DNA of 64,000 nt from Candidatus Levyibacteriota bacterium (GCA_016214555.1 JACROF010000003.1:930-64929); one strand, 5' to 3'. Shown: positions 18,565 through 39,413, counted from the stretch's first letter. Notes: generated from the sequence alone by a model not told the origin. Translations and numbers: made by a program.

Positions 18565-18614
18565 GAAGCTCTAAACTTTAGCCGACTTAGCTCAGTGGTA
18601 GAGCAGTTGTTTTG

Positions 18615-18718
18615 CCTGCCCGCCAGATGCCGAGATAGCTCAGTGGTAGAGCAGTTGTTTTGTAAACATCAGGTCCGGGGTTCAAATCCCCGTCTCGGCT
18701 CCAGACATGGCAGGCGGG
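18615..18718 (+). other. Intervening element inside tRNA-Thr: 14-nt and 15-nt GC-rich complementary arms flanking a complete tRNA
   Basis: CCTGCCCGCCAGAT and GACATGGCAGGCGGG form a roughly 11-bp helix with one mismatch, abutting anticodon-loop positions 35 and 36. Confidence 0.55.
18629..18703 (+). tRNA. tRNA-Thr(UGU), complete copy nested inside the split tRNA-Thr
   Basis: Acceptor GCCGAGA/TCTCGGC, D arm identical to the outer gene, anticodon loop UUUGUAA, T arm CGGGG/CCCCG, CCA encoded. Confidence 0.75.
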
Positions 18719-18760
18719 TAAACATCAGGTCGTCGGTTCAAATCCGACAGTCGGCTCCAG

Positions 18761-18847
18761 GCTGGGGTGGCAGAGTAGCAATTGCACGTGGCTGTAGACC
18801 ACGCGGTCGAAAGGCCTCCGGGGGTGCAAGTCCCTCCTCCAGCACCA
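18761..18847 (+). tRNA. tRNA-Tyr(GUA), type II with a long variable arm
   Basis: Acceptor GCTGGGG/CTCCAGC, anticodon stem CGTGG/CCACG with loop CUGUAGA, variable-arm stem GGTC/GGCC, CCA encoded. The T loop is the non-canonical TGCAAGT. Confidence 0.7.
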
Positions 18848-19035
18848 CGTCAGATTTTTGATATCTGCTTTCGTTCCGATTTAGTCGGGACTTCAGCTTT
18901 CTATCAAATCTTCCTTGTCAAATTTCAAACAAATTTGATGTGCTCAAAATCCAAAGGATTTTGAAGAGGAGAAACCGACGATAGGTTGAAATCCGAAAAA
19001 AGTTCGGATGAAAACAAGAAGTCGAGCTTCGACGA

Positions 19036-19107
19036 GCCCAAATGGCTCAGTGGTAGAGCGAGTTCTTGGTAAGAACTAGGTCGCGGGTCCGATTCCCGCT
19101 TTGGGCT
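19036..19107 (+). tRNA. tRNA-Thr(GGU)
   Basis: Acceptor GCCCAAA/TTTGGGC, anticodon stem AGTTC/GAACT with loop UUGGUAA, T arm GCGGG-TCCGATT-CCCGC. Confidence 0.8.
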
Positions 19108-19115
19108 CAGAGATC

Positions 19116-19144
19116 TTTTATTTCTGCTTCAAATCGTGTATACT
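19116..19144 (+). promoter_or_regulatory. Candidate extended -10 promoter for rpmG
   Basis: TGTATACT (TGnTATAcT) at 19137..19144, with an AGGAG RBS at 19152..19156. Confidence 0.35.
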
Positions 19145-19163
19145 ATCGCTCTAGGAGTTTTTT

Positions 19164-19340
19164 ATGCCAAAAAAAGGAGAACATCGCATCATTATTGGAC
19201 TCGTTTGTTCGGTTTGCAAAAACCGCAATTACGTCTCGCAAAAAAACAAGCTTGAGACTCCAGACAAGCTAAAACTTAACAAATTCTGCAAACACTGTCA
19301 AAAGGTAACAGAGCACAAAGAAAACGAGAAACTCAAATAA
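19164..19340 (+). CDS. rpmG: Ribosomal protein L33 (58 aa; below the ORF-track length cutoff)
   Basis: The translation [58 protein letters not shown] has the L33 zinc-ribbon pattern. Confidence 0.85.
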
Positions 19341-19457
19341 GTATTTAGTATCTTGTATAAAGAATCAAGCATACTATACTCTTATATTTCCACCTCAAAT
19401 CTCATCATTCATTCCTTTATACTTAATACTAAATACTGTATACTTTATACCTGAATT

Positions 19458-19529
19458 AGGGGTGTAGTGAAATGGCTATCACAGCAGTCTCCAAAACTGC
19501 TTTTCACAGTTCGAATCTGTGCGCCCCTG
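19458..19529 (+). tRNA. tRNA-Trp(CCA)
   Basis: Acceptor AGGGGTG/CGCCCCT, anticodon stem GCAGT/ACTGC with loop CUCCAAA, T arm CACAG-TTCGAAT-CTGTG. Sits in the conserved rpmG-trnW-secE position. Confidence 0.8.
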
Positions 19530-19580
19530 CTACATTCAGTTCACTTCTCCACAATTATATAAACAAATTGTGGTTCGTTC

Positions 19581-19904
19581 ATGAACGTGGCTAGCCACGT
19601 GAATAGAAGTAGAAGATGGATGTGGCCTGCCATCATGTTTTACTTCTACATCCTCAGAAGTTTAAAAAATCAAAAACTTTATCTTGGCTATTCCTCTGAC
19701 TTAAAAGAAAGAATAAAATCTCACAATAATGGCAAAAATAATGCCACTAAACCAAATATTCCCTATGAATTAATTTACTATTCTGCATTTAAAAGTGAAA
19801 AAGACGCTATTAATTGTGAGCAATATTTCAAAACCACTGCTGGGTGGAAACGAATTCATAAAATGCTTGAAAACACATTAAAAGATACTCAGTCTCTGAT
19901 ATAA
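19581..19904 (+). CDS. GIY-YIG nuclease-domain protein
   Basis: FYFYILRS...KLYLGYSSDLKERIKSHN matches the GIY-YIG core. The start is probably an internal Met. Confidence 0.65.
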   Translation: MNVASHVNRSRRWMWPAIMFYFYILRSLKNQKLYLGYSSDLKERIKSHNNGKNNATKPNIPYELIYYSAFKSEKDAINCEQYFKTTAGWKRIHKMLENTLKDTQSLI

Positions 19905-19911
19905 TTTCCTC

Positions 19912-20346
19912 ATGATTAAAATACCATATTACGAGACTTCTTATTTCTCCTTCTCCAACTTCTCATCCCACTCTATAAAAATAGATGGAGTTTTATATCC
20001 TACCGTTGAACATGCTTTTCATGCTGCGAAATTCGATAATGAAAAAATAAAGGAAGAAATCAAAAGCGCGGGCAGTCCGCTGAAGGCATTTGAGATTGGT
20101 AAGAAGTATAAACCACAAAGGAGAAGCAACTGGGATGAGACAAAAGTGTCTGTACTTCAAAAAATCATTGCTGAAAAAGTGAAACAACACGACGAAGTCA
20201 GAAAAGCATTACTCGCAACTGGTAATGAGGAGATCATAGAAGATAACCCACTTGATGATTTCTGGGGAAATGGTAAAGACGGAAACGGACAAAATCATAT
20301 GGGTAAAATCTTAATGAGGATCAGAAATGAACTACAATTTCAGTAA
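19912..20346 (+). CDS. NADAR (YbiA/DUF1768)-family protein
   Basis: FSNFS...YPTVEHAFHAAKF...EDNPLDDFWGNGKDGNGQNHMGKILMRIR matches the NADAR signature. Confidence 0.7.
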   Translation: MIKIPYYETSYFSFSNFSSHSIKIDGVLYPTVEHAFHAAKFDNEKIKEEIKSAGSPLKAFEIGKKYKPQRRSNWDETKVSVLQKIIAEKVKQHDEVRKALLATGNEEIIEDNPLDDFWGNGKDGNGQNHMGKILMRIRNELQFQ

Positions 20347-20429
20347 TTTTTGTAAATAATACGTTCCAACATATCCACATAGACCTATCTTCTTGTTGCA
20401 TATAAAAATATAAAATCTACAATATCACC

Positions 20430-20957
20430 ATGGTTATTTCTCCATATCAACAAACACTTACCCATAGCTGCTTGGCAGCTTGTTTTTTGATGCTTCAAGA
20501 AAAACAGTTTACAAAGTTTGATGAACAGGAACTGGCTCTTAAAGGGTCAAGCAGAAAATATCCTTTCTATGTTGTGGGTATTCCTGAAGAGTTTGTCAAA
20601 AAGTATGATGGCAACATTAAAATTTATGCAGATAATAATTTTTTTGCTACAACACTTCAAAAAGCATTTATAGGCAATAAAAAAATACATGTTACTCACA
20701 AAAAGATAGATATGGCTTTTATCACTGAATTACTTAATGAAAAACCACTTATTTGTCATATTGATAACCATGCATTAGGTGATTATTCTCATGTATCACA
20801 TTTCATAATTCTAGAGAAAGCAACAAAAGAATTTGTAACTATCATTGACCCCTGGAGTGGAAAGAAAAAGAAAATTAGCAAATCTACACTGACTGAGGCA
20901 ATATCTGATTTAAAAAATCATGTAAAAATGTGTCCCCTTCTATTCTCAGTTGAATAA
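20430..20957 (+). CDS. Peptidase C39-like cysteine protease domain protein (standalone)
   Basis: A Gln/Cys motif (QQTLTHSCLAACFLML), a His motif (SHFIIL) and an Asp motif (IIDPW), in C39 order. Confidence 0.65.
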   Translation: MVISPYQQTLTHSCLAACFLMLQEKQFTKFDEQELALKGSSRKYPFYVVGIPEEFVKKYDGNIKIYADNNFFATTLQKAFIGNKKIHVTHKKIDMAFITELLNEKPLICHIDNHALGDYSHVSHFIILEKATKEFVTIIDPWSGKKKKISKSTLTEAISDLKNHVKMCPLLFSVE

Positions 20958-21049
20958 TACACCCAACATAGTTGCTTAGCACGTAAAACAAAATTAAAAA
21001 GCGGACATTATTATTCCAACCATAACCACCCCAATGGTGCAAGAAAAAA

Positions 21050-21634
21050 TTAAAGCAGATTGCTATTTTTGAGCATGCGCTGCTGGATATCAATCCTATT
21101 AATCTCACGAGTAACAAAATTTTGACCCTGTGGTGAACCTTGACGAATCTGATCGATAACCCCTTCACTTGGCACAACTTTTCCCTCTATGTCGACATAC
21201 TCAGGATTCTGGCCAATACGTCGTATTGCCACCTCTCTTGCATGCTCTGGGTCATCTGTATAAAAACCCCATGCATTCGTTTTCAAGGTTCCTTTAAATT
21301 CCCTTGCGACTCTGTCTTTAAAAGATGTAGCCTCACCTACGTATCCTTCTCGTACTCTCATTATCTCACCCATGGTATAAAAATAATCCAGATCAGGATA
21401 ATACCCTACAACCTGATTTTGAAATGCTTCAGACTGGGGATCTATTCCATCCATCTGAATTCTTGCTGCTTCAAGTGCTAAATTAAGCGATTCCATATCC
21501 CATCCCTTTCCTGGCCCATGAATCGAGCTGTCTCTATAGCGAATAGGTGGTGGATTCTCGGGTGCAGGAGAATTGTAGTAGTTTATAACAAAAGCGCCAC
21601 TTTTTTTAAAAATAACCATAATCCAACCAAACAT
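21050..21634 (-). CDS. Hypothetical protein
   Basis: ORF only; no recognisable motif. Confidence 0.4.
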   Translation of the reverse strand: MFGWIMVIFKKSGAFVINYYNSPAPENPPPIRYRDSSIHGPGKGWDMESLNLALEAARIQMDGIDPQSEAFQNQVVGYYPDLDYFYTMGEIMRVREGYVGEATSFKDRVAREFKGTLKTNAWGFYTDDPEHAREVAIRRIGQNPEYVDIEGKVVPSEGVIDQIRQGSPQGQNFVTREINRIDIQQRMLKNSNLL

Positions 21635-21681
21635 TTGCGAAAATCTTACATTACTTATAGTTTTTCCTTTATAATAGTTTT

Positions 21682-22305
21682 ATGAGGAAATTGATCGGGG
21701 TTATTATTGTTACCTCTTTTGTTATTGGAGGAGCATTTCTTCTGATACAAAATAATACGACTCGCCAGCTTCCCAAATCTCTCTCTGAGTCAAACCAAGT
21801 CGCACCTTCCTCGTCTAGCTCAGAAATAATTGATAAACTCAAGGCTGGAGGAAGTAGTCTTTCAGATCCAAAAGGCGTTTTTAGCATTCTCTACCCAAAT
21901 GATTACAAAACAGATACCCAAAATAACGGACAATATATTCGTATTTACAAAACTGGTTCAACACAACGAGGACAAACCGAAATGTATGATGGAGTCATTA
22001 TTACCTTTGAAAGTATCACTCTTAACAGTCAGAAGCTGGAATCCTTTGTAGATGAACATATTAAAAGTAGTACAGTCGATGGCACCACCACGGTGAGCCA
22101 ACCAAAAAGAGCTACTGTGGTCAATGGTTATCCTGGCTTTAGCTATACTCTTCACGGACTTGGTGAATCCACATATATAGTCCTTCAGAAAGATACCCAA
22201 TCAGACTATGCAGTAAGCATATCCTATGCTGTGATGGACCCAGAAAAAGTTGGCTATCAACAAGAAGTCGATGCCACCTTCTCCACTATCCAGCTTCTCA
22301 AATAA
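21682..22305 (+). CDS. Hypothetical exported or membrane-anchored protein
   Basis: N-terminal TM or signal anchor followed by an S/T-rich linker. Confidence 0.4.
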   Translation: MRKLIGVIIVTSFVIGGAFLLIQNNTTRQLPKSLSESNQVAPSSSSSEIIDKLKAGGSSLSDPKGVFSILYPNDYKTDTQNNGQYIRIYKTGSTQRGQTEMYDGVIITFESITLNSQKLESFVDEHIKSSTVDGTTTVSQPKRATVVNGYPGFSYTLHGLGESTYIVLQKDTQSDYAVSISYAVMDPEKVGYQQEVDATFSTIQLLK

Positions 22306-22421
22306 ATACTATAGGTTGACTTCTGATTTCATTTATGGTAAAGTTCACCTAAGTCAATGGCCACACAAGGCTATTAGAACATTCACAGCTTAGTCGTTTT
22401 AAAAGTGAAAGGATACCGCAG

Positions 22422-22781
22422 ATGGGTCGTTATCTTGCTCTTTTGCCATTCGATTTCGATTGGGTGAAAACTGATTTTTCTCACTCGATATTAGAGTGCA
22501 CCCAGCGATCGGAGCTTTTCGAAGAGCTTGAAAAACTTCCGAGCATGCCTGTTCCAGAGCAATTTCATACCTATCTTGGCTACGATCCTGAGACTGAGAG
22601 GACTTGCTACGGCAACACCCAGACCACAAATGATGGCGAGCAGCTCATGTATGTTTTGGTCGAACAGCTCCTTCCATTTTCCACTCACGAGCTCGTGAGG
22701 GACAATTTTCTCAATAGGGCTGTTTGGGCGTATCTGAAAGAGCTTCCAAGGAAAACAAAAATAGCTCTTTACTTTCACTGA
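22422..22781 (+). CDS. Hypothetical protein
   Basis: ORF followed 20 nt later by a strong terminator. Confidence 0.4.
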   Translation: MGRYLALLPFDFDWVKTDFSHSILECTQRSELFEELEKLPSMPVPEQFHTYLGYDPETERTCYGNTQTTNDGEQLMYVLVEQLLPFSTHELVRDNFLNRAVWAYLKELPRKTKIALYFH

Positions 22782-22800
22782 TCCAACTTTACCACCCACA

Positions 22801-22824
22801 CCCCGGCCATTGGCCGGGGTTTTT
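22801..22824 (+). terminator. Rho-independent terminator
   Basis: CCCCGGCC-ATT-GGCCGGGG followed by T5. A near-identical 31-nt copy lies at 26105..26128. Confidence 0.75.
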
Positions 22825-22930
22825 CTTTGGGAAAAAACTCCAAATCTATCTCTATAGGACGTTTTTATGCTATACTTCCCCAACTGCAAACCGCAGGCAC
22901 ATTAACCTTGATAAAAAGAAAGGCACGGAT

Positions 22931-23743
22931 TTGGTCATACCAACAAATATCCCTATACCGACCCTCACGAAAAATGAGGTAGCAATACTATCTCATATAG
23001 TCACTACTCAAAGTCCATGCTATATAGGCAATATCTCAAAAGAGCTTGGCCTTGCTGAGTCAACGGTACGCTCCTCTCTTAGATCGCTCTGCACCAAAAA
23101 TTTGATCGTTCGCGACAAAATTGAAAAGACAAATGTCGGAGCGGCAAGACAGCTTTATATCCTTCGTGACCTTCAATTTGCTCGGCAAGTTCTAGGAGCA
23201 CGAGGAGGAGTACCTCAACCTACGCCGGTAGCACAAATTGAGAAAAAAGGACTACGAGTTATCTACGCTCGGGAAGATTTTGATCCGTCAACAATTGGAA
23301 GATCAATCTTTCTTGCCGGACCAACACCTCGCTCAAAGCGCGTACCATCCTGGAGAAAGAAAGCCCTCAACTTCCTCTCCCAGATGGTTGCAACGCCTTT
23401 GACAGTATTTGTTCCGGAAGATCATGATGGCACCTTCCACAAAGCGTTCTTCGATGATCAGGTCGAGTGGGAAGAGAAAGCTCTTACAGCAGCAACTGTC
23501 ATCGCATTCTGGATCCCACGAGATCTCAGAACTCTTCCTGGTTTTACCACCAACGATGAGTTTGGAGCATGGAAGAGGTCAGGGAAAGTAGTCCTTGGTG
23601 TACCACCTGAGACTCCAAAGACTCGCTACCAACTGTATTACGCCAGAAAACTTGGTATTCCTACAGCCAAGTCGCTTGAGAAAACACTGGCACTTGCGTG
23701 CATCAAGGTAAAAGAAATTAATTGCGACACCCCGGCTTCATAG
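22931..23743 (+). CDS. Winged-helix DNA-binding domain fused to a nucleoside 2-deoxyribosyltransferase (NDT/DNPH1)-like domain
   Basis: The ORF-track start (22724) lies upstream of the terminator at 22801, so the real start must be downstream; an in-frame TTG at 22931 is proposed. The wHTH is EVAILSHIVTT...ISKELGLAESTVRSSLRSL. The C-terminal part reads IFLAGP ... PGFTTNDEFGAW, which aligns with the NDT pattern I-Y-x-A-G-P/W...G-[ST]-x-x-E-x-G-[YA]. Confidence 0.45.
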   Translation: MVIPTNIPIPTLTKNEVAILSHIVTTQSPCYIGNISKELGLAESTVRSSLRSLCTKNLIVRDKIEKTNVGAARQLYILRDLQFARQVLGARGGVPQPTPVAQIEKKGLRVIYAREDFDPSTIGRSIFLAGPTPRSKRVPSWRKKALNFLSQMVATPLTVFVPEDHDGTFHKAFFDDQVEWEEKALTAATVIAFWIPRDLRTLPGFTTNDEFGAWKRSGKVVLGVPPETPKTRYQLYYARKLGIPTAKSLEKTLALACIKVKEINCDTPAS

Positions 23744-23754
23744 CCGGGGTTTTT
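23730..23754 (+). terminator. Rho-independent terminator
   Basis: CCCCGGC-TTCATA-GCCGGGG followed by T5. The stop codon sits in the loop. Confidence 0.7.
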
Positions 23755-23861
23755 CTTATAAGCGCACTATGGGATTGTTCTATCACAATCATTTCGCTAT
23801 AATACATACTGTTCTCAGGCAAATCACCTTGAGCTCATTTAGCACATTTAAAGGAGGAGAT

Positions 23862-24275
23862 ATGTATCTTAAAATAAAAGCGCTCATGTACGTTGTTGGG
23901 TATCCTTTGTTCTATCTGCTCACAAGAGGTCTTTTGCACATCAACAAGATTGAGACAGACCTACCTCACGACAGTATTGAGGTTGCTCTGAAAACATTTG
24001 TTTATTGGTCTATTCTCTTCGCGGTGATACCAGTTAGTTTCATGTTATTTCTTGGACTAATGGAAGCGCCTCCACCAATAGCTGTCATAGCTTTTATACC
24101 AGGCTTGATGCTGATTGGCCTTACCTATGCAGCAATGCCTACAACCGTTGGCATTGGTGGCCTAAGCTTTGCTTGTTTGTTGAGCCTCATTCTTGTGGTC
24201 ATAACACACCCATTCGAGCGATGCATGGTTGAAATCGAGTTCCCTAGCTCAGAAAGGTCTTTACACGAAAGATAA
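23862..24275 (+). CDS. Small polytopic membrane protein
   Basis: An AAAGGAGGAG RBS precedes the ATG at 23862 (the ORF track starts at 23769). Four hydrophobic helices. Confidence 0.45.
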   Translation: MYLKIKALMYVVGYPLFYLLTRGLLHINKIETDLPHDSIEVALKTFVYWSILFAVIPVSFMLFLGLMEAPPPIAVIAFIPGLMLIGLTYAAMPTTVGIGGLSFACLLSLILVVITHPFERCMVEIEFPSSERSLHER

Positions 24276-24290
24276 CTATATCCACTCATG

Positions 24291-24318
24291 CGGTGGCCAT
24301 CAGGCCACCGCTTTTTTT
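24291..24318 (+). terminator. Rho-independent terminator
   Basis: CGGTGGCC-ATCA-GGCCACCG followed by T7. Confidence 0.75.
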
Positions 24319-24750
24319 GTTGTGATCACATTAATACTCTCTTAACATGCTCGTCTCTACCTACAATGATAAATATTCCCTATTATCACTATAGGTTTAC
24401 TTTTTAAGACTTCTAGTGTATAATCCATACGCTTTACAGGTTAGTACAGAACAATTGCGTTTTGCTACTTTCTAACGTAAATAGTTCTTTAACAACTTGA
24501 GATTCAAATTTTAAGAATTTATCTTTATTTCTATCGATATGAAGCTAATTTCGGGTCGATGGCGCTTTGCTCATGGTATCGTGCGTAAAGTGCCGTCGAT
24601 CAGGAAGAATCAGCGCGATTCAATCCTGCATTGTAATGGCTTTGTTTGAAATGGAGAAAGGCCTGTAGACATATGCAAGGAGGTGCACAACCCTAACAAA
24701 CAGGTAAATTCTTTCGTCGCCAAACTTTACCCAAAAAAGGAGAAGAATCG

Positions 24751-26076
24751 ATGTCAGATCAGACAGGAGCCCTTCAGATTCCCGTTGTCGGAACCGGCAC
24801 TCTAGCAGTTCCACCGCAACCACAGGGATCAGCCAGCTCCGCCCTCATGCAGACGGGAAATACAGCAACAGAGCGAAAGCAGCTCATCTGCAAGGACATC
24901 CTCAGGGCATTAAGCCCCGAAAGATTCCAACAAGCCACGGTCGTTGCCCAAGCCGACTACCCCAATATGCTGGTAAACAGCCAGATCGGTATGGTATACG
25001 GCTCTGAAGCGATCGCCGCCATGAACGCACTCGTCAGTTCGATGCGCACCAGAGTCACTCCGGTAGAAATACCGCAGCTTGACAAGATGATGGCTGCGAT
25101 CAACGATGAGATGCGCAGCTTCCGCGGCCACTACGACACCAGCAAGGACCCCGAACTTCGCGAGAAATACGAAAAAGCGATGGGCGGGATCAAGAAGCTA
25201 TTCAACCGAGGCAAGACCTACATGGAAATGCTCCATGAAGATATGCAATCCTCGGTCGAAAGGCTCGATGGCATCAAGGCAGAGCTACTTGCTAAGCAAG
25301 CTCAGCTCATACGAAATGTCGGCCTCTACGACGAGCTGTATCTGGCAAACGAACAGGAAATCGTCAACGTCATCGAAGCCATCGCACGGATGGAGATGAT
25401 TTGCGATTTGGCAGCTGCAGAAGCAGCTGCAATCGTTGGCGACCCCAACGATCCCGTCAATCACGCCAAGTTCGAGCGGAAACGTTTCATTGCAATATTT
25501 GCCAACAACCTGACGCTCAGGCTCACCGAATTCAAAAACCGCCTATTCGCCGGCTATGCGATGTCACCACAGATCACTCAGTCTCGAGACATCGATACTG
25601 CGATGGCGATGAAACTTTATTCTGTCTGCGATACCACCATCCCTCTCATCGAGTCAACCATGCTTCGATGGCAGATGATGGTCCAGGCAGAACTCGCAGC
25701 CGAAGCCGCAAACGCAGTCGCAAGACTCACCAACGAGGTACTCGTCGCGAATTTCGAAGCCGGAGCGGATATCCTGCCTCGAGTCGCCCAGGCGATTCAA
25801 ACGCCGACGATAACCCCCGAGACCATTTTGGCACTCGGTACAAGTATCGAGAAGCAGACTCAAGGCATCATCGATGCCTACGCTGCCGGACGTGAGCGAC
25901 GCGCAGCAGTCGATGATGCGATCGTAACTACGTACCGTGTCATCCAAAATGCTACGGCCAAGGTGAGCGACGAAGTCGTTGATCAACTGCTTGCGCAAGC
26001 CAACGCACCGCTCCCAGCTGTCATCACTGCGAAGCTTCCCGAGCTTCCAGCAGGTATTGAATCTCAAGCTTCCTAG
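24751..26076 (+). CDS. TelA-like (toxic anion resistance / KlaB family) protein
   Basis: GC is about 55%, well above the window average. An N-terminal Q-x-G...LSS element and a central GLYDELYLANEQEI region resemble B. subtilis TelA (compare DMLDEMYEKNKDYY). Long helical architecture and a strong AAGGAG RBS. Confidence 0.45.
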   Translation: MSDQTGALQIPVVGTGTLAVPPQPQGSASSALMQTGNTATERKQLICKDILRALSPERFQQATVVAQADYPNMLVNSQIGMVYGSEAIAAMNALVSSMRTRVTPVEIPQLDKMMAAINDEMRSFRGHYDTSKDPELREKYEKAMGGIKKLFNRGKTYMEMLHEDMQSSVERLDGIKAELLAKQAQLIRNVGLYDELYLANEQEIVNVIEAIARMEMICDLAAAEAAAIVGDPNDPVNHAKFERKRFIAIFANNLTLRLTEFKNRLFAGYAMSPQITQSRDIDTAMAMKLYSVCDTTIPLIESTMLRWQMMVQAELAAEAANAVARLTNEVLVANFEAGADILPRVAQAIQTPTITPETILALGTSIEKQTQGIIDAYAAGRERRAAVDDAIVTTYRVIQNATAKVSDEVVDQLLAQANAPLPAVITAKLPELPAGIESQAS

Positions 26077-26104
26077 TTCCTAGCAGCGCCTAGGAGATTT
26101 CTAA

Positions 26105-26128
26105 CCCCGGCCAATGGCCGGGGTTTTT
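26105..26128 (+). terminator. Rho-independent terminator (duplicate of the one at 22801)
   Basis: CCCCGGCC-AAT-GGCCGGGG followed by T5. Confidence 0.75.
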
Positions 26129-26154
26129 CTTTGGAAAAACGTTATACTAGATAT

Positions 26155-26286
26155 ATGGGAAACAAGAAAAAAATTATCCCTTTTTTTGAAAAAAATGAAT
26201 TACGAATTATTGCAATAAGTCTGAGTATTTTATCTTTTGGTCTTGCCATCGCATGGATTGGATTCGCGCTCTTTTCCGCAAAATAA
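26155..26286 (+). CDS. Candidate 43-aa single-TM small protein
   Basis: Translates to MGNKKKIIPFFEKNELRIIAISLSILSFGLAIAWIGFALFSAK. Below the ORF-track cutoff and has a weak RBS. Confidence 0.25.
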   Translation: MGNKKKIIPFFEKNELRIIAISLSILSFGLAIAWIGFALFSAK

Positions 26287-26344
26287 TTTTTTAAATTTCT
26301 CTCTTGTTTTTTTGTAAAAAATTATTGATACTTATATCTATTCA

Positions 26345-27763
26345 ATGAAGTATATAGTTATTACTTTTTCCGGTCTTGGTCTCCCCATCGCCTACAAACT
26401 ACATCAGCAAGGATACGAAGTGCATGTTGGTATGGTCCAAAACATCAAGGATTATGTTTTGGAAGAAGAAATATCACGAGCAAAAGAAGGTGAAGAAGAC
26501 AGAAATAAAAGAATGCAACTTTTCCAAGGCATGCTTCCCATTGAGCCTGCAGATAAAGTTATTGAACGGATGAGATCAATCCCCAACCCTCAGGACTACT
26601 TTGTCTTTTTTGATGAAAACTGTCTTTATAGGTGGGTAGATAAAATTCGCGATCTTAACTTTCATGGTAATTTCCCAACAAAAGCAGATTTTTTATTTGA
26701 AGTTGATCGCAAAAGAGCCAAGCAATTTGTTCAGGAACACTACCCCAAACTTAACACCCCTGAGGTACACGAATTCACCAAAATCAAAGATGGTATAAAA
26801 TTTCTCAAAGAAAGCAAAGAACTTTGGGTACTCAAAGGACAAATTGATACCGCTCGAACTTTTGTCCCTGCAGTTGAAGACCCAGGACTTGCCAATACCC
26901 AACTTGCTGAAGTTTTGGCTAATTTTCCTTACAAATATGAGAGGCTGGGATTTATTCTTGAGAGATTTATTCCCGATATCATCGAGCTGACGCCTGAAAA
27001 ATTTTATTACGACGGTGAACCCATTGCTACATCTCTTCTCTTTGAAAACAAACCATTTGGCAGTGGCAATATCTCAGTCCAGACGGGTTGCGCTGAAGAC
27101 CTCTGCTTCCCAACTGATATGAATGACCGCATCAATAAGATTGCTTTCCCACCTATCATTGATGAAATGGCTAAAGAGCATAAAGGGTGGTTTATCTGGG
27201 ATGCCTCAATTCTCATTGGAAAAAGAGATGGAAAAATGTATTTTGGTGAGTTTTGCTCAAATCGGCCAGGTTATAGCAGTTTTTTCAATGAACTCGCACA
27301 ATGCAATAGCGTCAATGGATTTTTTGAAAGCCTTGTCAAAAAGAAAAATCCTTATACACTAGGGACCGTTGGCTGCTCCGTATCAATTTTTAATATGAAC
27401 CGAGATGAAGACACCGATGCAATCTCTTCAAATATTCTTATTAACTACAAGCCTGAAATCGAAAAAGATGTCTGGTTGTGGGACGTAAGACGAAACGAAC
27501 GAAATAATATCGTCACCATAGGTACAGATTGGAATTTAGCCGTCATTACTGGAGCAGGGAAATCAATTCCTCAGGCTGTTAACAGACTCTATAGAAATGT
27601 TGAGAATTTTGCTATTGTTGGATCATACCATCGACCAAAAGACGATTATTTGTCCATGGATTATCAATCATCAATTATCAATAGGATTAACTATGGCCTC
27701 GAGCGAGGCTTGTTTCACATACCATTTGATGTTAAAATCGGCGATATCGACGCAACGGTATGA
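26345..27763 (+). CDS. ATP-grasp superfamily ligase, PurD (glycinamide ribonucleotide synthetase)-like
   Basis: N-terminal pre-ATP-grasp region (MKYIVITFSGLGLPIAYKL), a central region LWVLKGQ...ERFIPDIIELTPE, and a C-terminal YFGEFCSNRPGYSS that aligns with PurD EFNxRFGDPE. Confidence 0.5.
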   Translation: MKYIVITFSGLGLPIAYKLHQQGYEVHVGMVQNIKDYVLEEEISRAKEGEEDRNKRMQLFQGMLPIEPADKVIERMRSIPNPQDYFVFFDENCLYRWVDKIRDLNFHGNFPTKADFLFEVDRKRAKQFVQEHYPKLNTPEVHEFTKIKDGIKFLKESKELWVLKGQIDTARTFVPAVEDPGLANTQLAEVLANFPYKYERLGFILERFIPDIIELTPEKFYYDGEPIATSLLFENKPFGSGNISVQTGCAEDLCFPTDMNDRINKIAFPPIIDEMAKEHKGWFIWDASILIGKRDGKMYFGEFCSNRPGYSSFFNELAQCNSVNGFFESLVKKKNPYTLGTVGCSVSIFNMNRDEDTDAISSNILINYKPEIEKDVWLWDVRRNERNNIVTIGTDWNLAVITGAGKSIPQAVNRLYRNVENFAIVGSYHRPKDDYLSMDYQSSIINRINYGLERGLFHIPFDVKIGDIDATV

Positions 27764-28236
27764 CAAAAAATCGACTTTTGGATTTAAAAAAACTCAAATT
27801 TGAGGTTCGTGACGTCATGCGATATGACGATGCAGGGGATTATTTTGCCAACACGATTGTAGCCTACGACTTCAAAGACGACGTGATCACCAACGCTATT
27901 TTTCTCCACGAATTTATTGAGTATATGCTCATCAAGTCATCGGGTATTGAGCCTGAGCTGATTGACAAACTCGACACTGTTCCCAATGCTGAAAAAGATT
28001 ATCCAAGAGAGTGGAAGCTCTATGAAAAATATCACGATATGGCAAATAGTGTAGAGAGACAATTTATCGAAAATCTTGGCCTCAACTGGGAAGAATATGA
28101 CAAAACAGTCAACACCGCTAAAATCAAAACCGCAGTTCGTCACCTCTCAGATGAGATGCATAAAAAACAAATGGATAAAAAAGATATTACCAAAGCAAAA
28201 AGAATTGTCCGCGCAATCTTTAGAAAAAGAAAATAA
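27760..28236 (+). CDS. Hypothetical protein, translationally coupled to the ATP-grasp gene
   Basis: ATGA start/stop overlap with the upstream gene. Confidence 0.45.
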   Translation: MTKNRLLDLKKLKFEVRDVMRYDDAGDYFANTIVAYDFKDDVITNAIFLHEFIEYMLIKSSGIEPELIDKLDTVPNAEKDYPREWKLYEKYHDMANSVERQFIENLGLNWEEYDKTVNTAKIKTAVRHLSDEMHKKQMDKKDITKAKRIVRAIFRKRK

Positions 28237-28345
28237 TATTCCCTTTCTATCTTATAGTTTTTGAGTTTCTCCTCGCCATTTGCTATAATCCACCTAACGT
28301 GAAAAGGCATGGCACGAGCCATATACCAACCTTTTCATTTGCACC

Positions 28346-28756
28346 TTGAAAGGGAAAGAAATGACTGAGACAGCAAAACGCGGTGACTACGAAGTTGTCG
28401 CCTGTGTTGGCCTTGAGGAAATTGATGATCTCCCCTTCCGGGAGGCTCATCTTATCTGCTTGATTGGCATGTGTAATGGAAGCTGGAATATTACCTATGC
28501 CCGGGATGGCTCATGCTGTATGCGCATAGCTGTCACGAACGATCCTGAACTTTTTACGTATAGCCTCATCAAGAGCGCTGCATTCCTTGCTCAACTTCGC
28601 ATCCACAGTGCGAAATACACAACAGGTGAAAATATCGAACAATCGATCATATCTAGACTCAAGGGGCTTAAAGCTCCTCCGATAGTCTTTGCCAGATATC
28701 TCTGGCAATCAACGACCATGATCATTCGCGGCGTTCGAAACCAAAAGAAAGGTTAG
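28346..28756 (+). CDS. Hypothetical Cys-rich protein
   Basis: ORF with elevated GC; Cys cluster CLIGMCNGSW...GSCCM. Confidence 0.35.
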   Translation: MKGKEMTETAKRGDYEVVACVGLEEIDDLPFREAHLICLIGMCNGSWNITYARDGSCCMRIAVTNDPELFTYSLIKSAAFLAQLRIHSAKYTTGENIEQSIISRLKGLKAPPIVFARYLWQSTTMIIRGVRNQKKG

Positions 28757-28760
28757 ACAA

Positions 28761-29321
28761 ATGGACATTGTAGACATGCTAAAGCACAGTGTGACCATGG
28801 CGTACTTCTCAGAAGTCGCTCCTTGGTTTGCGGCAATTGAAGTTGTCGCACTCGGATTTTTCATTACGATGGCGATCCGCTACAGCATTGAGCCTGAACA
28901 CAAGCTATATTTCCTACCCTACTCAACGTTTTGGGCAGGTATGACGCTTGGATTTGGACTTATTGCGTACTTTGTCTCAAGAGGAACGCAGGACTATCAT
29001 CCAACGCATCACTGGTATGACCAATTCTGGTTCATGCTACTCATCGGTGCCATAGGGATGTTTATTGCCTTGCAAAATTCCTACAACACACAAAGAAACA
29101 CTGGTCGGGATATCTGGACACATAGTGAGTGGTGGTTGTGGCTTGTTGTCGCACCCATACTCACGCCTGTCTTGGTCCGAGGAATTATCGTCCTAGCAAA
29201 GACTGATGGAGCTGCCTCCACTAACTTTGCAGGAGTCATAATCGGCCTGTCTATCTATGTACTGACTCTATCTGTTGATGCTTTGAGATCACCCTCTAAA
29301 GCTTCAACAAAAAAAGAGTAA
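28761..29321 (+). CDS. Polytopic membrane protein, unknown function
   Basis: Five hydrophobic helices; lies 5 nt downstream of the previous ORF. Confidence 0.4.
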   Translation: MDIVDMLKHSVTMAYFSEVAPWFAAIEVVALGFFITMAIRYSIEPEHKLYFLPYSTFWAGMTLGFGLIAYFVSRGTQDYHPTHHWYDQFWFMLLIGAIGMFIALQNSYNTQRNTGRDIWTHSEWWLWLVVAPILTPVLVRGIIVLAKTDGAASTNFAGVIIGLSIYVLTLSVDALRSPSKASTKKE

Positions 29322-29340
29322 CTTTCCTTTTCTCCAATTT

Positions 29341-29376
29341 GGCATTCCGGGCTCGTCTCGGAATGCCATTTTTTTT
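29341..29376 (+). terminator. Rho-independent terminator
   Basis: GGCATTCCG-(9 nt)-CGGAATGCC followed by T8. Confidence 0.7.
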
Positions 29377-30034
29377 ATCTCTTCAAAATTTTTTTAAATC
29401 CCTTGAAGTAATAAAAAACCAATCCCATACACCCTAAAGCAAATCCTAAAAGACCTCCTCCTATAACATCAGAAAACCAATGCTCGCCTAAATAGATTCT
29501 GGACACAAGCATAATAACAACAAATACACCAACCAAAATTGATAAAAATATTTTTGTATGTTTTGACCATCCACTATGCCAGATAATAAAAAGGAGAACT
29601 GTTGCTAAAAAAACGGCTCTCCCACTATGGCCTGATGGATAGGAGAACTCTGTCCTTACGTGAAATTGATCAAACTGCACAATTTTATGTGTTCGAAGCA
29701 TAAATTCAGGAGGTGGCGGATGATCAACAAAAAATTTTCCAAAAAGTTCAATTACATGAAATCCCACAAAACCACCAAAAAGCATAATCCCAGAAATAAT
29801 TTTTCGCCAATAAATGAGGGTGAAAATTACTATAACAAGCATCGGCTCAAAGCTCCCTATGTCACTAAAAAATGAGAAAACATCATCAACATTACGAGTG
29901 ATGTTATTTTGAAGCCTCACGGTCGTATCAAAATCAATTCGAGTCAAAAAATCTTTGTGGACTAGATAAGAAAAAAGGATAAAAAGAAGAAAAAAACCGA
30001 TACCAACAAGAAAAAATTTCAGTTCTTTTCGCAT
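29375..30034 (-). CDS. PAP2-family phosphatase (undecaprenyl-diphosphatase-like)
   Basis: PSGHS and SRIYLGEHWFSDV motifs in a membrane protein. Confidence 0.7.
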   Translation of the reverse strand: MRKELKFFLVGIGFFLLFILFSYLVHKDFLTRIDFDTTVRLQNNITRNVDDVFSFFSDIGSFEPMLVIVIFTLIYWRKIISGIMLFGGFVGFHVIELFGKFFVDHPPPPEFMLRTHKIVQFDQFHVRTEFSYPSGHSGRAVFLATVLLFIIWHSGWSKHTKIFLSILVGVFVVIMLVSRIYLGEHWFSDVIGGGLLGFALGCMGLVFYYFKGFKKILKR

Positions 30035-30056
30035 CTATCTATCATAGCAAAAAGAC

Positions 30057-30317
30057 TCAGGGCTGTCTGGATCTGATGTATCTATGCAAAACCTTTGCAC
30101 CACCAGCACCTACGACTGCTGCAGATGCACCAATAGCAATTGATTTCCTATTTCTTGAAACAAAATTTACTACTTCGACAGCATTGCCTCCGACTGCTGT
30201 GATTGATGGATGAGGATCTCCGCGGGGAATGATAATATCATAGGGACTATCAACGATTTGGGCATATTCATTCATTTTGCCGACCTCATACGGATCGCGA
30301 CTCTCTCGCCCTCTCAT
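30057..30317 (-). CDS. Small Gly/Ala-rich hypothetical protein
   Basis: ORF only; lies 4 nt downstream of galU. Confidence 0.3.
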   Translation of the reverse strand: MRGRESRDPYEVGKMNEYAQIVDSPYDIIIPRGDPHPSITAVGGNAVEVVNFVSRNRKSIAIGASAAVVGAGGAKVLHRYIRSRQP

Positions 30318-30320
30318 ATC

Positions 30321-31205
30321 CTAATCAAGATTAAGTGTTTTTAGAAATGCCTTAAAATCTCCATTAATATCCGGATGCTCAAGCGCTAATTCTACAGCTG
30401 TCTTCATATACTCAAGCTTATTTCCTGTGTCATAATACTTACCATTCTCAATCTCAACAGCATAGACAGGAACCCCTGAGTCTTGCAGCTTGTTAATAGC
30501 ATCAACAAGCCAAATTTCTCCACCTTTCCCAGGCTCAAGTGACCTGAGCGCTCCAAAAAGTTCAGGAGGGACGATGTATGCTCCATGAGTTGCGATATTA
30601 GAAGGCGCCTCATCAGGCTCTGGTTTCTCAACAATACTTTTAATTTTATAAACATTTCCCTCGACAGGATCCAAATCAGCGATCCCATATCTCTTAAGAT
30701 CTTCTTTTTTATCAATTCTGACTCCCGATATAACAATTCCCCCGTATTTTTCATAGACATCAATCATCTGGGAAAGCCTGGGAGGGTTTGCGTAAATAAA
30801 TTCATCTCCCCATAAGACAGCAAAAGCTTCATTTTCAATAATTGGCTCTGCAGCAAGAACAGGAGTACCATTACCATAAGGCCCCTTCTGCCGTACATAA
30901 ATAAAATTAGCAAGATCTGCTATTTTTTTTGTCTCTTCAAGAAGCTTTTGCTTATTTCCCTGCTCTAAATTCTTGATAAGGTCCTGATTTGGTACATCAA
31001 AATGATCCTCAATTGCTCTTTTGAGAGCCCCTGTAACAATTACGATATCCTCAATACCGGAAGCTACAGCTTCCTCTACAACATATTGAATAACAGGCTT
31101 ATCTACAATAGGAAGCATTTCCTTAGGAAGAGCTTTTGTCTGAGGAAGAAATCTGGTCCCAAAACCAGCTGCGGGGATAACGGCTTTTCGTATCCTTTTT
31201 GCCAT
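30321..31205 (-). CDS. galU: UTP-glucose-1-phosphate uridylyltransferase
   Basis: KAVIPAAGFGTRFLP...LPKEMLPIVDKPVIQY. Confidence 0.85.
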   Translation of the reverse strand: MAKRIRKAVIPAAGFGTRFLPQTKALPKEMLPIVDKPVIQYVVEEAVASGIEDIVIVTGALKRAIEDHFDVPNQDLIKNLEQGNKQKLLEETKKIADLANFIYVRQKGPYGNGTPVLAAEPIIENEAFAVLWGDEFIYANPPRLSQMIDVYEKYGGIVISGVRIDKKEDLKRYGIADLDPVEGNVYKIKSIVEKPEPDEAPSNIATHGAYIVPPELFGALRSLEPGKGGEIWLVDAINKLQDSGVPVYAVEIENGKYYDTGNKLEYMKTAVELALEHPDINGDFKAFLKTLNLD

Positions 31206-31368
31206 ATTCTATTTTGTCACAAAAGATAAAATTTTACCTGCCATGACAAAGTAAAATTAATTGTACGCGAGCTCTCTTTACATGTCAATGAGGATTTGGT
31301 ACAATTACTTGATCTCAAATCATATATCTCAAAGCTCGTCTTGACATTTGAGTTTTACGGTTTGAGTT

Positions 31369-31557
31369 TTGTTTATGACATCGCCAGTTTCTTTTCTTAC
31401 CCAAACATATGATGAGTTAAAAAAAGTCGTCTGGCCAACACGTCAGCAACTTATGAAATTAATGCTGATAGTTATGTTTGCAAGTCTTGTTGTAGGACTC
31501 TACATCGGTGGCATAGACTTTGTTCTTACTAAACTAACAGAATCGTTATTAAAATAA
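31369..31557 (+). CDS. secE: Preprotein translocase subunit SecE
   Basis: EL+KVVWPTRQ followed by a single TM segment. Confidence 0.8.
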   Translation: MFMTSPVSFLTQTYDELKKVVWPTRQQLMKLMLIVMFASLVVGLYIGGIDFVLTKLTESLLK

Positions 31558-31569
31558 CAATAGTAACTT

Positions 31570-32160
31570 ATGACACAAGCAACCGATTTACCAAACGGAC
31601 CATCTGAAGAAGAAATTAAAAAAGCATCATTATCTGAGGCTGCTAAATGGTACATTGTTCATACCTATGCTGGTCATGAAAATAAAGTAGCTCGCAATCT
31701 CAAACAACGTGTTGAGACGATGGGTTTTGAGACCCGCATCTTTGACATCATCGTTCCTACTCGCCAAACCATTAAAGTGCAAGGTGGAAAAAAAGAAGAA
31801 GTCAGTGAAAAAATCTTTCCAGGATATGTTCTTGTCAAAATGATTCTCGATGATGAATCATGGCTTCTTGTTAGAACAACGCAAGGAGTTACAGCATTTA
31901 TTGGTGCTGGCAATAAACCAACGCCAATTTCAGAGAAAGAAGTTGAGGCTATTCAACAGTTCATGACACAAGAAGAACCTCTGTACAAAACTTCATTCTC
32001 TCTTGGTGAAGCGGTCAAAATCGTTGATGGACCTTTCGCAGATTTTCTGGGTACTATTGACAGCATAGATGAGACTCGTGGTAAACTACGCGTCTTGGTA
32101 AGTATCTTCGGACGAGAAACGCCCGTTGAGCTTGATTTCCTGCAAGTACAAAAAATATAA
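31570..32160 (+). CDS. nusG: Transcription termination/antitermination factor NusG
   Basis: KWYIVHTYAGHENKV (NGN domain) and a C-terminal KOW domain (GEAVKIVDGPFADFLGTI). Confidence 0.85.
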   Translation: MTQATDLPNGPSEEEIKKASLSEAAKWYIVHTYAGHENKVARNLKQRVETMGFETRIFDIIVPTRQTIKVQGGKKEEVSEKIFPGYVLVKMILDDESWLLVRTTQGVTAFIGAGNKPTPISEKEVEAIQQFMTQEEPLYKTSFSLGEAVKIVDGPFADFLGTIDSIDETRGKLRVLVSIFGRETPVELDFLQVQKI

Positions 32161-32243
32161 GAAGGATGTAGAAGATAGTAAGTAGCTTTTAGTTACGTTT
32201 TAACTACACGCTATTGCCTACTTTACTACCTACTAAACAAAAT

Positions 32244-32666
32244 ATGGCTAAAAAAATTAAAACATTAATAAAGCTTAATATCCAAGCAGGTGCAGCGACT
32301 CCTGCACCACCTGTTGGACCAGCTCTTGGTCAACACGGACTTCCTATCATGGAATTTGTAAAGGCCTTCAATGACAAAACAGCAGATCAGAAAGGCAATC
32401 TTCTTCCTGTTGTTATTACTGTTTTTGAAGACCGAACCTTTACTTTTATTACCAAAAAGCCTCCTATGGCTGAAATGATCAAAAAGGCACTTGGACGAGG
32501 CGGGTCACAAAAGCCTGGAAAAGAAAAAGCAGGTTCTATCACCAAATCCCAAGCTGAGCAAATTGCTAAAGACAAAATGGAAGATCTTAATACCGATGAT
32601 CTTGACATGGCAACACGAATCGTCGCGGGTACAGCACGAAGTATGGGAGTGGAGGTTTCAAGCTAA
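32244..32666 (+). CDS. rplK: Ribosomal protein L11
   Basis: [38 protein letters not shown]. The start is trimmed to the canonical Met. Confidence 0.9.
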
Positions 32667-33651: not shown

Positions 33652-35076
33652 ATGCCTGAAAATGCTGAAGTAAATCCCGTTGTTGAACCAAAAGCTGAAT
33701 TTGACGTAGGCTTCTTTACCATAAATTTTCTCTCTACAGACCCTCATGGCTTTGAGGTTCAGACAAGACACAGCCTTCCCCGCCGTGACAGAGATCCTGT
33801 GACAGGATTGCCTGCCACTCCTCTTGCACTCAACCAAGAACAAAGAGGAGACCTCCGACGAGGCATGGGAACAGAGGCATTCTTTGCTCTTCCTGGAGAT
33901 TTCCCTCATGAAAAAAGGCCAGATGTTAGAAGACTTTTTAGCCTTATAGATCAAACAGCAACGCTTAAGGAGCAAGCTGGAACAACTGAACAACTGCAAG
34001 AAAAATTAATGGAGATGAGAATGCTTCGTAAAGAACTAAGGCCGTTATTTAAAGAATATAATCTTCGAGATAGATTAGGTCTTAAAGTTGGGACTCGAAA
34101 TGTGCAGAAAGTTGGAATACGTAAAATTGAACGGGCTGGAAATAAGCTTCTTATTGATACAAGACCTATTAGTTATCCTGTCTATGCCGTGGCAAGTAGC
34201 CCCGACGACACTGAAGAATCTCTGGATTTAGGCGCTGTTACAGGCACAGCAGGTGTTCTTATTACAGCAGATAACAAAATGATTCTTCAATACAGAAGCA
34301 AAAAAAATAGTCCTTATGGTGATATGCCAGGGGCGAGTTTTGCTGGCATGCTTGATGCTCGTTTCAAAAGAATAAAACTAGAAAATGGCAAAGAACTCAA
34401 AACAGGTGTTCTTCAAGATGTAGATGATACATATATCAAAGAAAGTTCAGCTGAGGAACGATTTCAGGAAATTGCTATCGTTGGTGAAGACGTAACAGAT
34501 TTTAGGATTATCGGCGAAGCTCGTGATCATGTCCGTGAACATGACGAATTTCTTTTGTTGGCAAAAACATCTCTTACAGCGCGTGAGGTGGCAAAAAGAA
34601 CTGAAAACGCTCCCCGAAGTAGCAATGCACGGAAATTAAATGGCCAGGGAGACTTTCATTTTGAAGAAAATTTTCTTGTGATAGATGCCACACCTGAGGC
34701 TATTGAGACCCTTGTAACGCAAGTCAAATGTCCTCGCCCACCTACCCATGATGCAGCTTTTATAGCTGCAGGCTATAACATGATGCTTGAAAGAACACAG
34801 GAAGAAGGCGGTGGGCTGAAAGCAGCTAATGAGTGGCTTGAAAGGATGCAAGAGGCAACTCGTCAAAACTACGAGGATATGAATAAAATAGTCAAGGAGT
34901 TCTATGAACAACATCCTGAAAAGCTTGAAGATAATAAGCCTGGCAAACCCAAACGAAATCCTAATGCATATGAACCCTACTACTTTCCAACCGAACAAGG
35001 GCTACCAGATCTCATGAATGAACTTTATAGAACTGGACTTATGACCAGACCCGAGACAGATTCCTCCCCAAGCTAG
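33652..35076 (+). CDS. Hypothetical protein (474 aa) inserted between rplA and rplJ
   Basis: Long ORF at about 47% GC with no recognisable motif. Confidence 0.5.
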   Translation: MPENAEVNPVVEPKAEFDVGFFTINFLSTDPHGFEVQTRHSLPRRDRDPVTGLPATPLALNQEQRGDLRRGMGTEAFFALPGDFPHEKRPDVRRLFSLIDQTATLKEQAGTTEQLQEKLMEMRMLRKELRPLFKEYNLRDRLGLKVGTRNVQKVGIRKIERAGNKLLIDTRPISYPVYAVASSPDDTEESLDLGAVTGTAGVLITADNKMILQYRSKKNSPYGDMPGASFAGMLDARFKRIKLENGKELKTGVLQDVDDTYIKESSAEERFQEIAIVGEDVTDFRIIGEARDHVREHDEFLLLAKTSLTAREVAKRTENAPRSSNARKLNGQGDFHFEENFLVIDATPEAIETLVTQVKCPRPPTHDAAFIAAGYNMMLERTQEEGGGLKAANEWLERMQEATRQNYEDMNKIVKEFYEQHPEKLEDNKPGKPKRNPNAYEPYYFPTEQGLPDLMNELYRTGLMTRPETDSSPS

Positions 35077-35142
35077 CCTTGACTCTCACGAGTAATCGTA
35101 CTATACTCACCCACAAGAATAAGCTGCCGAACTGGCAGCTTT

Positions 35143-39385: not shown

Positions 39386-39413
39386 ATAAAAAAAGCCCCG
39401 GCAAAGCCGGGGC
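39386..39413 (-). terminator. Rho-independent terminator for paralog 1
   Basis: GCCCCGGC-AAA-GCCGGGGC with a T-run on the minus strand. Confidence 0.7.

Follow-up and report, generated by a model that had tools for sequence, protein, structure and literature searches.

A likely old, lineage-wide break of the tRNA-Trp/secE junction in Levybacteria, with conserved anchor genes and replaced intervals

In a 64,000-nt stretch of DNA from a metagenome-assembled genome of a Candidatus Levyibacteriota bacterium of the Microgenomates, Patescibacteria (the window, whose positions are used throughout), about 12 kb separates the tRNA-Trp gene from secE; this interruption, at 19530-31368, is the stretch under study. 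Its left flank runs tRNA-Thr, tRNA-Tyr, tRNA-Thr, rpmG and tRNA-Trp. The rpmG gene for ribosomal protein L33 (19164..19340, plus strand) matches TIGR01023 at 59.7 bits, above the cut-off, and shares 91-95% identity with its counterparts in four close relatives (L087, L088, L090 and L094), while tRNA-Trp(CCA) (19458..19530, plus strand) is called by ARAGORN and by Rfam (RF00005, 59.9 bits), which finds four tRNAs and nothing else over the whole window. On the right, secE (31369..31557, plus strand; PF00584, 64 bits) leads into nusG (31570-32160), rplK (32214-32666) and rplA. These assignments bear out the anchors and the interruption described in an original prediction, made from the sequence alone, which had placed 15 open reading frames (ORFs) here and read them as one accessory island. 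The coordinates and gene order of that prediction hold, but the count becomes 16 credible genes plus one doubtful 55-aa ORF. A literature search on the tRNA-Trp/secE/nusG/rplK arrangement, limited in reach, found nothing. We propose that the stretch is likely an old, vertically inherited break of the tRNA-Trp/secE junction, present across the Levybacteria and looser in other Microgenomates, in which a conserved backbone of genes is combined with intervals whose content is replaced.

The backbone consists of the paired genes g11 and g12, a small membrane protein, a PAP2 phosphatase and galU, whose order and orientation ahead of secE-nusG-rplK-rplA are preserved in relatives. The g11 gene (26345..27763, plus strand) encodes a 472-aa protein predicted to have the fold of a PurD-type ATP-grasp ligase, and g12 (27760..28236, plus strand) encodes its 158-aa partner, with a start codon that overlaps the g11 stop (ATGA). 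The 472-aa protein is identical to an NCBI entry on a 131-kb Levybacteria contig, where g11 and g12 bear the locus tags HZC02_01585 and HZC02_01590. The PAP2 lipid phosphatase gene g15 (29375..30034, minus strand; PF01569, 61 bits) has weak similarity to undecaprenyl-diphosphatases. The last gene, g17 (30321..31205, minus strand), is divergent from secE and encodes a galU-type UTP-glucose-1-phosphate uridylyltransferase (PF00483, 98 bits; TIGR01099, 309 bits, under the cut-off of 327).

The synteny comparison covered 80 loci fetched around NusG relatives and 16 fetched around homologues of g11 or g12. The best NusG matches all lie in Levybacteria or other Patescibacteria genomes, some under mislabelled records. 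Judged by NusG identity and synteny, many Patescibacteria records, including L001 and L005-L007, are titled 'uncultured Gammaproteobacteria' or 'Pseudomonadales'; because of these wrong titles, the taxon labels of the compared records are untrustworthy for judging horizontal transfer.

The canonical arrangement is seen in nine Chloroflexota loci, where 43-187 nt separate tRNA-Trp from secE. Among 14 other loci that hold both genes, all labelled as Patescibacteria or mislabelled relatives, the two genes are 0.9-13.8 kb apart; L094 has 12.1 kb, L088 13.8 kb and the window 11.8 kb, and relatives whose gap carries g11, PAP2 and galU (with g12 in some) have 9-14 kb. In 20 of 85 related loci, the gene immediately upstream of secE is a minus-strand galU, with PAP2 beyond it in Levybacteria. 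Seven Levybacteria contigs (L083, L086/87, L088, L090, L094 and L095) hold g11 (63-78% identical), PAP2 and galU at this position, and their NusG is 90-94% identical to that of the window in L083, L086/87, L088, L090 and L094 and 79% in L095. PAP2 is found at the same position, at 44-82% identity, in L001-L005, L083, L086, L088, L090, L094 and L095. In the closest relatives the order is rpmG, tRNA-Trp, a variable interval, g11 (in some with g12), a second variable interval, PAP2 on the minus strand, a variable slot, galU on the minus strand, secE, nusG, rplK and rplA. The right-hand 5 kb (26345-31205) is thus read as mostly inherited backbone, because it is syntenic in relatives. The original prediction had named relatives with the same genes in place as what would count against an island, and this is what is found for the right-hand 5 kb; 19531-26344 and 28346-29321 are specific to the window, bar a weak match of g14. 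A single accessory island is therefore set aside, since the right-hand part is syntenic in seven Levybacteria contigs and the sampled Patescibacteria generally have a gap, of 0.9-13.8 kb.

The intervals between the anchors turn over by replacement. No tblastn match to g01-g10 or g13 was obtained in any relative's locus, and g14 matches only weakly (26-30%), to the gene after g11 in L088 and L090. In L083, L086/87, L088, L090 and L094, the first interval, equivalent to 19581-26076 of the window, holds a minus-strand PolA gene with a peptidase S8 or Acyl_transf_3 gene and others, so that ten other genes of the window stand where these five relatives have PolA with a peptidase or acyltransferase. 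In the second interval, g13 and g14 take the place of the GAF histidine kinase found in the same five relatives. In L095 the first interval contains only two short ORFs, and the second consists of one 216-aa gene. Variation extends to the small slot that separates PAP2 from galU and, in some genomes, to one that separates galU from secE. The replaced genes may have arrived in several separate events, because the units are separately transcribed and terminated and differ in their GC content at third codon positions (GC3; 0.23-0.35, about 0.48 and 0.61). Within an old conserved gap, the strain-specific share is thus a replaced segment of about 6.8 kb and a further 1 kb or so; such plasticity is ordinary for a genome, although its place is unusual. 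The apparent inserted island is corrected accordingly: relatives show that the backbone is stable and that turnover is confined to sub-blocks. For island scans in candidate-phyla-radiation genomes, this means that lineage-matched synteny is needed as the null model, not the arrangement of other bacteria.

Several observations weigh against this reading. First, g11 is absent from the locus in L002-L005, whose NusG is 77-83% identical, so that the backbone is not clade-universal. Second, all compared genomes are metagenome assemblies. Third, galU falls into two allele classes in close relatives, and even anchor genes may have been exchanged. Its identity to the window copy is 73-96% in L001-L004, L083 and L095, 57% in L005 and about 52% in L086, L088, L090 and L094, the last group having NusG that is 90-93% identical; this pattern suggests that the galU anchor was replaced by a xenologue. 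Fourth, the neighbour of a g11 homologue in Aquicella lusitana, a cultured gammaproteobacterium, is a PNP_UDP_1 nucleoside phosphorylase, which would fit a nucleoside-related role of g11 instead of the envelope role proposed below.

The g11-g12 pair deserves particular attention. By sequence or profile, g11 has no match in Pfam (E up to 5), NCBIfam, PHROG or the PDB. An AlphaFold model built on 23 homologues (predicted local distance difference test score, 77) was compared with the PDB by Foldseek, and glycinamide ribonucleotide (GAR) synthetases, the PurD enzymes, took ranks 1-13, 15 and 16 (E 4e-18 to 2e-13; template-modelling score 0.54-0.64; about 16% identity). An L-amino-acid ligase (3vot) took rank 14, and biotin carboxylases and PylC came lower. 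The earlier call of a PurD-like ligase thus stands at the level of a predicted fold; at the sequence level it fails, as no GARS_N, GARS_A or GARS_C match is found. K164, D286, E302, N306 and R307 are invariant in the 23 homologues, and sequence inspection suggests that they may form the Mg-ATP site.

A large protein database holds 456 homologues of g11; the best 120 of them are full-length and 63-78% identical, and none of these carries a Pfam domain. An exhaustive HMMER search of 1.84 billion cluster representatives found only 332 clusters; the family is small and stays separate from canonical PurD. The partner, g12, has 93 homologues (49-84% identity), likewise none with a Pfam domain, and its invariant residues H50, E51, E54, H92, E99 and H134 form the pattern H-E-x-x-E...H...E...H. 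It adjoins g11 in all five contexts seen, including L094 and L095 at this locus and L089 and L096 away from it. Both are highly conserved unannotated families and syntenic core genes in one Levybacteria clade, and the pair is the most useful lead from the stretch.

The contexts of g11 homologues give further indications. The Aquicella homologue is 66% identical; horizontal transfer is pointed to, because this equals the level in the distant Levybacteria L095 (63%). The homologue in L083 has YkuD and peptidase S8 genes as neighbours, and those in L088 and L090 have Acyl_transf_3. Distant members of the family (30-46% identical) are found in varied settings. L092 has two tandem paralogues (51% and 46% identical) together with an ATP-grasp_3 protein and a pyridoxal phosphate-dependent decarboxylase, divergent from a murA/Mur-ligase/glmU/glmS cluster, and transpeptidase, mraW and mraZ genes lie a few kb further from the mur/glm cluster. 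In L093, an M42/M20 peptidase gene overlaps and follows the homologue. In L091, a distant relative lies on a phage contig of 36 kb that also carries genes for tail, glucosaminidase, HNH and GroEL/ES proteins. The distant relatives P0267, P0285, P0303 and P0304 are interrupted by LAGLIDADG inteins, which split the invariant GEF|CSNR motif. Inteins typically insert at active sites. Genes for purine synthesis (pur) are absent near g11 in the window and in eight of ten other loci; L093 has purC and purE 4-7 kb away.

Compared with PurD, g11 shares the predicted three-domain fold and, judged by sequence inspection, may share the ATP-binding residues, with an E-x-x-x-N-R motif (E302, N306, R307), K164 and D286; it differs in being only about 16% identical to the matched structures, seems to stand outside a purine-pathway context and has a dedicated 158-aa partner, and its relatives lie beside mur genes, in phage, or carry inteins. 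It also resembles Ddl, D-aspartate ligase and L-amino-acid ligases in fold class, with 3vot among the top structural matches and the L092 family members beside murA, mur ligases, glmU and glmS, but it lacks sequence-level membership of these families. Judged from gene context and fold, g11 is most likely a carboxylate-amine ligase that attaches an amino acid or amine either to a precursor of the envelope or to a small metabolite, and g12, from its gene context, most likely binds a metal and serves as an accessory or reversing enzyme. More tentatively, the two may form an undescribed two-component ATP-grasp ligase system, with g12 as a protein of unrecognised fold, which would couple an amino acid or amine to a cell-envelope precursor in Levybacteria, would have spread horizontally to Legionellales-like bacteria such as Aquicella and would have phage-borne and intein-invaded members in its wider family. 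From its context, the backbone as a whole probably provides cell-envelope chemistry, namely UDP-glucose supply, lipid-phosphate recycling and ATP-dependent carboxylate-amine ligation. The pair offers tractable targets for the envelope biochemistry of organisms that cannot yet be grown alone.

The genes of the first interval (g01-g10) are read as independent accessory functions: a small GIY-YIG nuclease, a NADAR glycohydrolase, a cysteine peptidase, a winged-helix nucleoside 2-deoxyribosyltransferase (NDT)-like protein and a stand-alone TelA-like protein that may act in envelope stress. The 107-aa GIY-YIG protein g01 (19581..19904, plus strand; PF01541, 55 bits) has native-like GC3 (0.32). Eight nt after it begins g02 (19912..20346, plus strand), a stand-alone NADAR/YbiA-like domain of 144 aa (PF08719, 119 bits), which also matches the YbiA-type N-glycosidase domain model TIGR02464 above its cut-off (122 bits). 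The 175-aa product of g03 (20430..20957, plus strand) is a probable papain-like or C39-like cysteine peptidase, with an N-terminal Q..C motif and downstream candidate His and Asp residues seen by sequence inspection; its scores are borderline and under the cut-offs (PF03412, 21.8 bits against 22; PF11814, 22.8 bits against 25).

The hypothetical gene g04 (21050..21634, 194 aa) is on the minus strand, since its codon-position GC suits that frame (GC1 0.54, GC3 0.32) and not the overlapping plus-strand ORF; it is one of three hypothetical genes of the original prediction, which stand with this change of strand. The plus-strand hypothetical gene g06 (21682..22305; ORF and translation) encodes 207 aa with an N-terminal hydrophobic segment and matches no family in the Pfam, PADLOC, NCBIfam or PHROG scans. 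Next, g07 (22422..22781, plus strand; 119 aa; GC3 0.48, z = 3.1) is followed by a terminator at 22800-22835. The fusion gene g08 (22931..23743, plus strand) joins a winged helix, with weak helix-turn-helix (HTH) matches, to an NDT-like domain (PF15891, Nuc_deoxyri_tr2, 58 bits). A 339-aa ORF form of it reads through the terminator at 22800; the true start is probably TTG at 22931, giving about 270 aa, and the gene's own terminator (23729-23750) overlaps its stop. A metagenome-contig scan recovered no close relative of g08. The 168-aa membrane protein g09 (23769..24275, plus strand) is followed by a terminator at 24290-24311. Neither g04 nor g09 has a family match in Pfam and further profile scans, and a relaxed Pfam search (E up to 5) of g04, g06, g07, g09, g13 and g16 gave nothing usable.

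The last gene of this interval, g10 (24751..26076, plus strand), encodes a divergent stand-alone TelA-like protein of 441 aa (PF05816, 60.6 bits, cut-off 30) and has its own terminator at 26103-26125. A search of 5.8 billion proteins returned g10 itself as the sole match, and a metagenome-contig scan returned no close relative.

Among the remaining right-hand genes, g13 (28346..28756, plus strand) is strain-specific, absent from the relatives' loci, and encodes a hypothetical protein of 136 aa with six Cys, with no family match in Pfam (including the relaxed search), PADLOC, NCBIfam or PHROG. The membrane protein gene g14 (28761..29321, plus strand; 186 aa) has a weak DUF3180 match and is followed by a terminator at 29340-29368. 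The small ORF g16 (30057..30317, minus strand; 86 aa) occupies the variable slot between PAP2 and galU and has a weak match in L001 only; in relatives this slot holds a 117-aa ORF, a 212-aa ORF, gmk or a 309-aa ORF. The domain calls of the original prediction therefore mostly stand (GIY-YIG, NADAR, TelA, PAP2 and galU by Pfam), except that the NDT-like domain is PF15891 and not PF05014, and that C39 is borderline.

Five GC-rich hairpin terminators with T-tails follow plus-strand units, at 22800, 23729, 24290, 26103 and 29340. Two of them, at 22800-22835 and 26104-26139, share 94% identity over 36 nt, which upholds the near-identical pair claimed earlier. The further claims, that each plus-strand unit ends in a terminator and that all are of one design, do not hold: the stem CCCCGGC..GCCGGGG is common to only three of the five, and no terminator was detected for the g01-g06 units. 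A fourth copy of this stem lies outside the stretch, at 39396-39412; for this reason the design looks like a house-style terminator used genome-wide rather than a mark of a mobile element. An integron-like cassette array was rejected as well, in view of the 9-bp stems with T-tails, which are ordinary intrinsic terminators, the lack of an integron integrase and the fourth copy outside.

Base composition is heterogeneous, as the original prediction had suggested, although its 50-55% GC applies to the TelA-like gene (54%) and not to 28346..28756 (46.5%). Against a background GC3 of 0.32 ± 0.05, computed over 33 long ORFs in the window, native-like values are found for g01-g06, g11, PAP2 and galU, whereas g07, g13 and g14 stand at about 0.48 (z about 3), with g13 at 0.47. 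The TelA-like g10 has a GC3 of 0.61 (z = 5.5); the shift is restricted to the ORF, with AT-rich intergenic stretches on either side. By composition, g10 is clearly foreign, and at least one horizontal acquisition is thus clear.

We consider four other explanations. First, the left 6.8 kb could be a decayed prophage or a phage-derived accessory cluster that remained after loss of the phage backbone. The NADAR protein matches phrog_1017 (E 1e-35) and the TelA-like protein phrog_5890 (E 5e-11), the latter sharing about 25% identity with TelA from Streptococcus phages and satellites; the GIY-YIG protein is weakly like intron endonucleases, and the phage contig with a distant g11 relative belongs to the same line of evidence. 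However, structural, replication, integrase and lysis genes are lacking, attL and attR were not found, and g01-g03 have native GC3. Phage collections contain no close match to g11 either, whether its protein and family alignment are compared with viral contigs or tblastn is run against GenBank phages, and its fold finds only generic ATP-grasp similarity among the BFVD viral structures. We regard a phage origin of the left part as unlikely.

Second, and slightly less probable still, the whole stretch could be one biological-conflict or defence island of about 12 kb integrated beside tRNA-Trp, as originally suggested. GIY-YIG, NADAR, NDT-like and C39-like domains are indeed present, the stretch adjoins a tRNA, and its GC content is heterogeneous. 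In a defence scan of 15 proteins of the stretch with PADLOC-DB 2.0, however, only a weak match of the NADAR protein g02 to PDC-M42C (38 bits) and weak generic HTH matches were obtained, so that no PADLOC system was found among them; the anti-phage NADAR model DS32_2 gave 76 bits with g02, against a cut-off of 240. Together with the contexts of g11, which point to envelope chemistry, this speaks against a defence island, as do the synteny of the right 5 kb in seven Levybacteria contigs and units that are separately terminated and unlike in composition. Signs of integration are also missing. Pfam detects no integrase or recombinase domain in any credible ORF of 19531-31368; the window contains no further copy of the 21-nt 3' end of tRNA-Trp, even when three mismatches are allowed; and no exact repeat of at least 10 nt is shared between 19490-19560 and 19561-31400. 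The suggested integrative element with a repeat of the tRNA-Trp 3' end is thus not borne out by searches with mismatches and with exact k-mers.

The stretch does resemble known tRNA-linked islands and integrative elements in having strain-specific genes directly after a tRNA, mixed composition and at least one foreign-looking gene; it differs from them in lacking an integrase and a tRNA 3' duplicate, in its syntenic backbone of about 40%, and in a gap that is old and lineage-wide. Similarly, g02 recalls the DarT1-NADAR and YarT-YbiA pairs, as a 'naked' NADAR/YbiA domain standing second in a tight two-gene unit. Its neighbours, however, are the 107-aa GIY-YIG protein and the C39-like protein, with no ADP-ribosyltransferase domain. 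Most bacterial NADARs are stand-alone, without a known partner, and the antitoxin ones adjoin an ADP-ribosyltransferase (PMC11125620).

Third, the high-GC TelA block, and perhaps the nested tRNA described below, could be an assembly artefact from chimeric metagenome joins. The GC content jumps sharply from about 30% to 55% and back, near-identical 36-nt repeats lie at 22800 and 26104, and the TelA-like protein is known from one contig only. Yet the GC shift coincides exactly with the limits of the ORF, native-like AT-rich intergenic DNA flanks it, the g10 terminator is of the same family as the copy 13 kb away at 39396, and no repeat marks the left edge of the shift. A chimeric origin is thus very improbable.

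Stand-alone TelA genes occur in phages and Firmicutes. With known Ter/TelA systems, g10 shares the TelA domain; it is set apart by being about 25% identical to the nearest annotated TelA, by an extra N-terminal region of about 80 aa and by a stretch in which Pfam finds no TerB, TerC, TerD, vWA, PRTase or HAD domain. Hence a reduced Ter-type stress system, in which the TelA-like protein and the ATP-grasp ligase would make a nucleoside-like metabolite, is the least credible explanation: the adjacency of g10 and g11 and the inclusion of TelA and ATP-grasp amidoligases in published accounts of Ter systems (PMC7824862, citing Anantharaman et al. 2012) are outweighed by the missing Ter domains, by the separation of two genes of sharply different GC3 (0.61 vs 0.36) through a terminator and about 270 nt of AT-rich spacer, and by the lack of a TelA gene in all ten other g11 contexts examined.

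The flanks of the stretch show further rearrangements. The tRNA-Thr/Tyr/Thr-rpmG-tRNA-Trp block is inverted in L087 (1872-2538) relative to the window (18581-19530), L002, L094 and L095, and rpmG and tRNA-Thr(UGU) are likewise on the opposite strand in L090 (about 1466-1962); from these inversions, the tRNA cluster appears to be a recombination breakpoint in the clade.

Within the same cluster, at 18581-18762, a complete tRNA-Thr(UGU) (18629-18703) lies inside the anticodon loop of a second tRNA-Thr(UGU). The outer halves (18581-18614 and 18718-18759) are separated from the inner gene by a 14-nt linker on each side; joined, they give a valid tRNA-Thr that is 97-100% identical to the uninterrupted gene in L086, L087 and L090, and the inner copy resembles the L094 allele. 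The linkers pair mutually, and the whole forms one cloverleaf inside another (-72.9 kcal/mol, z = -4.3). This nested tRNA-Thr may be the scar of a recombination event, an insert resembling an intron, or an artefact of assembly.

Downstream of the stretch, the rplKAJL cluster is also split. Two large ORFs of 474 and 513 aa (33652-36684), with no family matches, lie between rplA and a probable rplJ (36915-37478), the latter assigned by tblastx similarity to relatives alone. In L088, rplJ follows rplA after about 200 nt, an arrangement shared by L090; L083 carries a partial homologue of the 474-aa protein.

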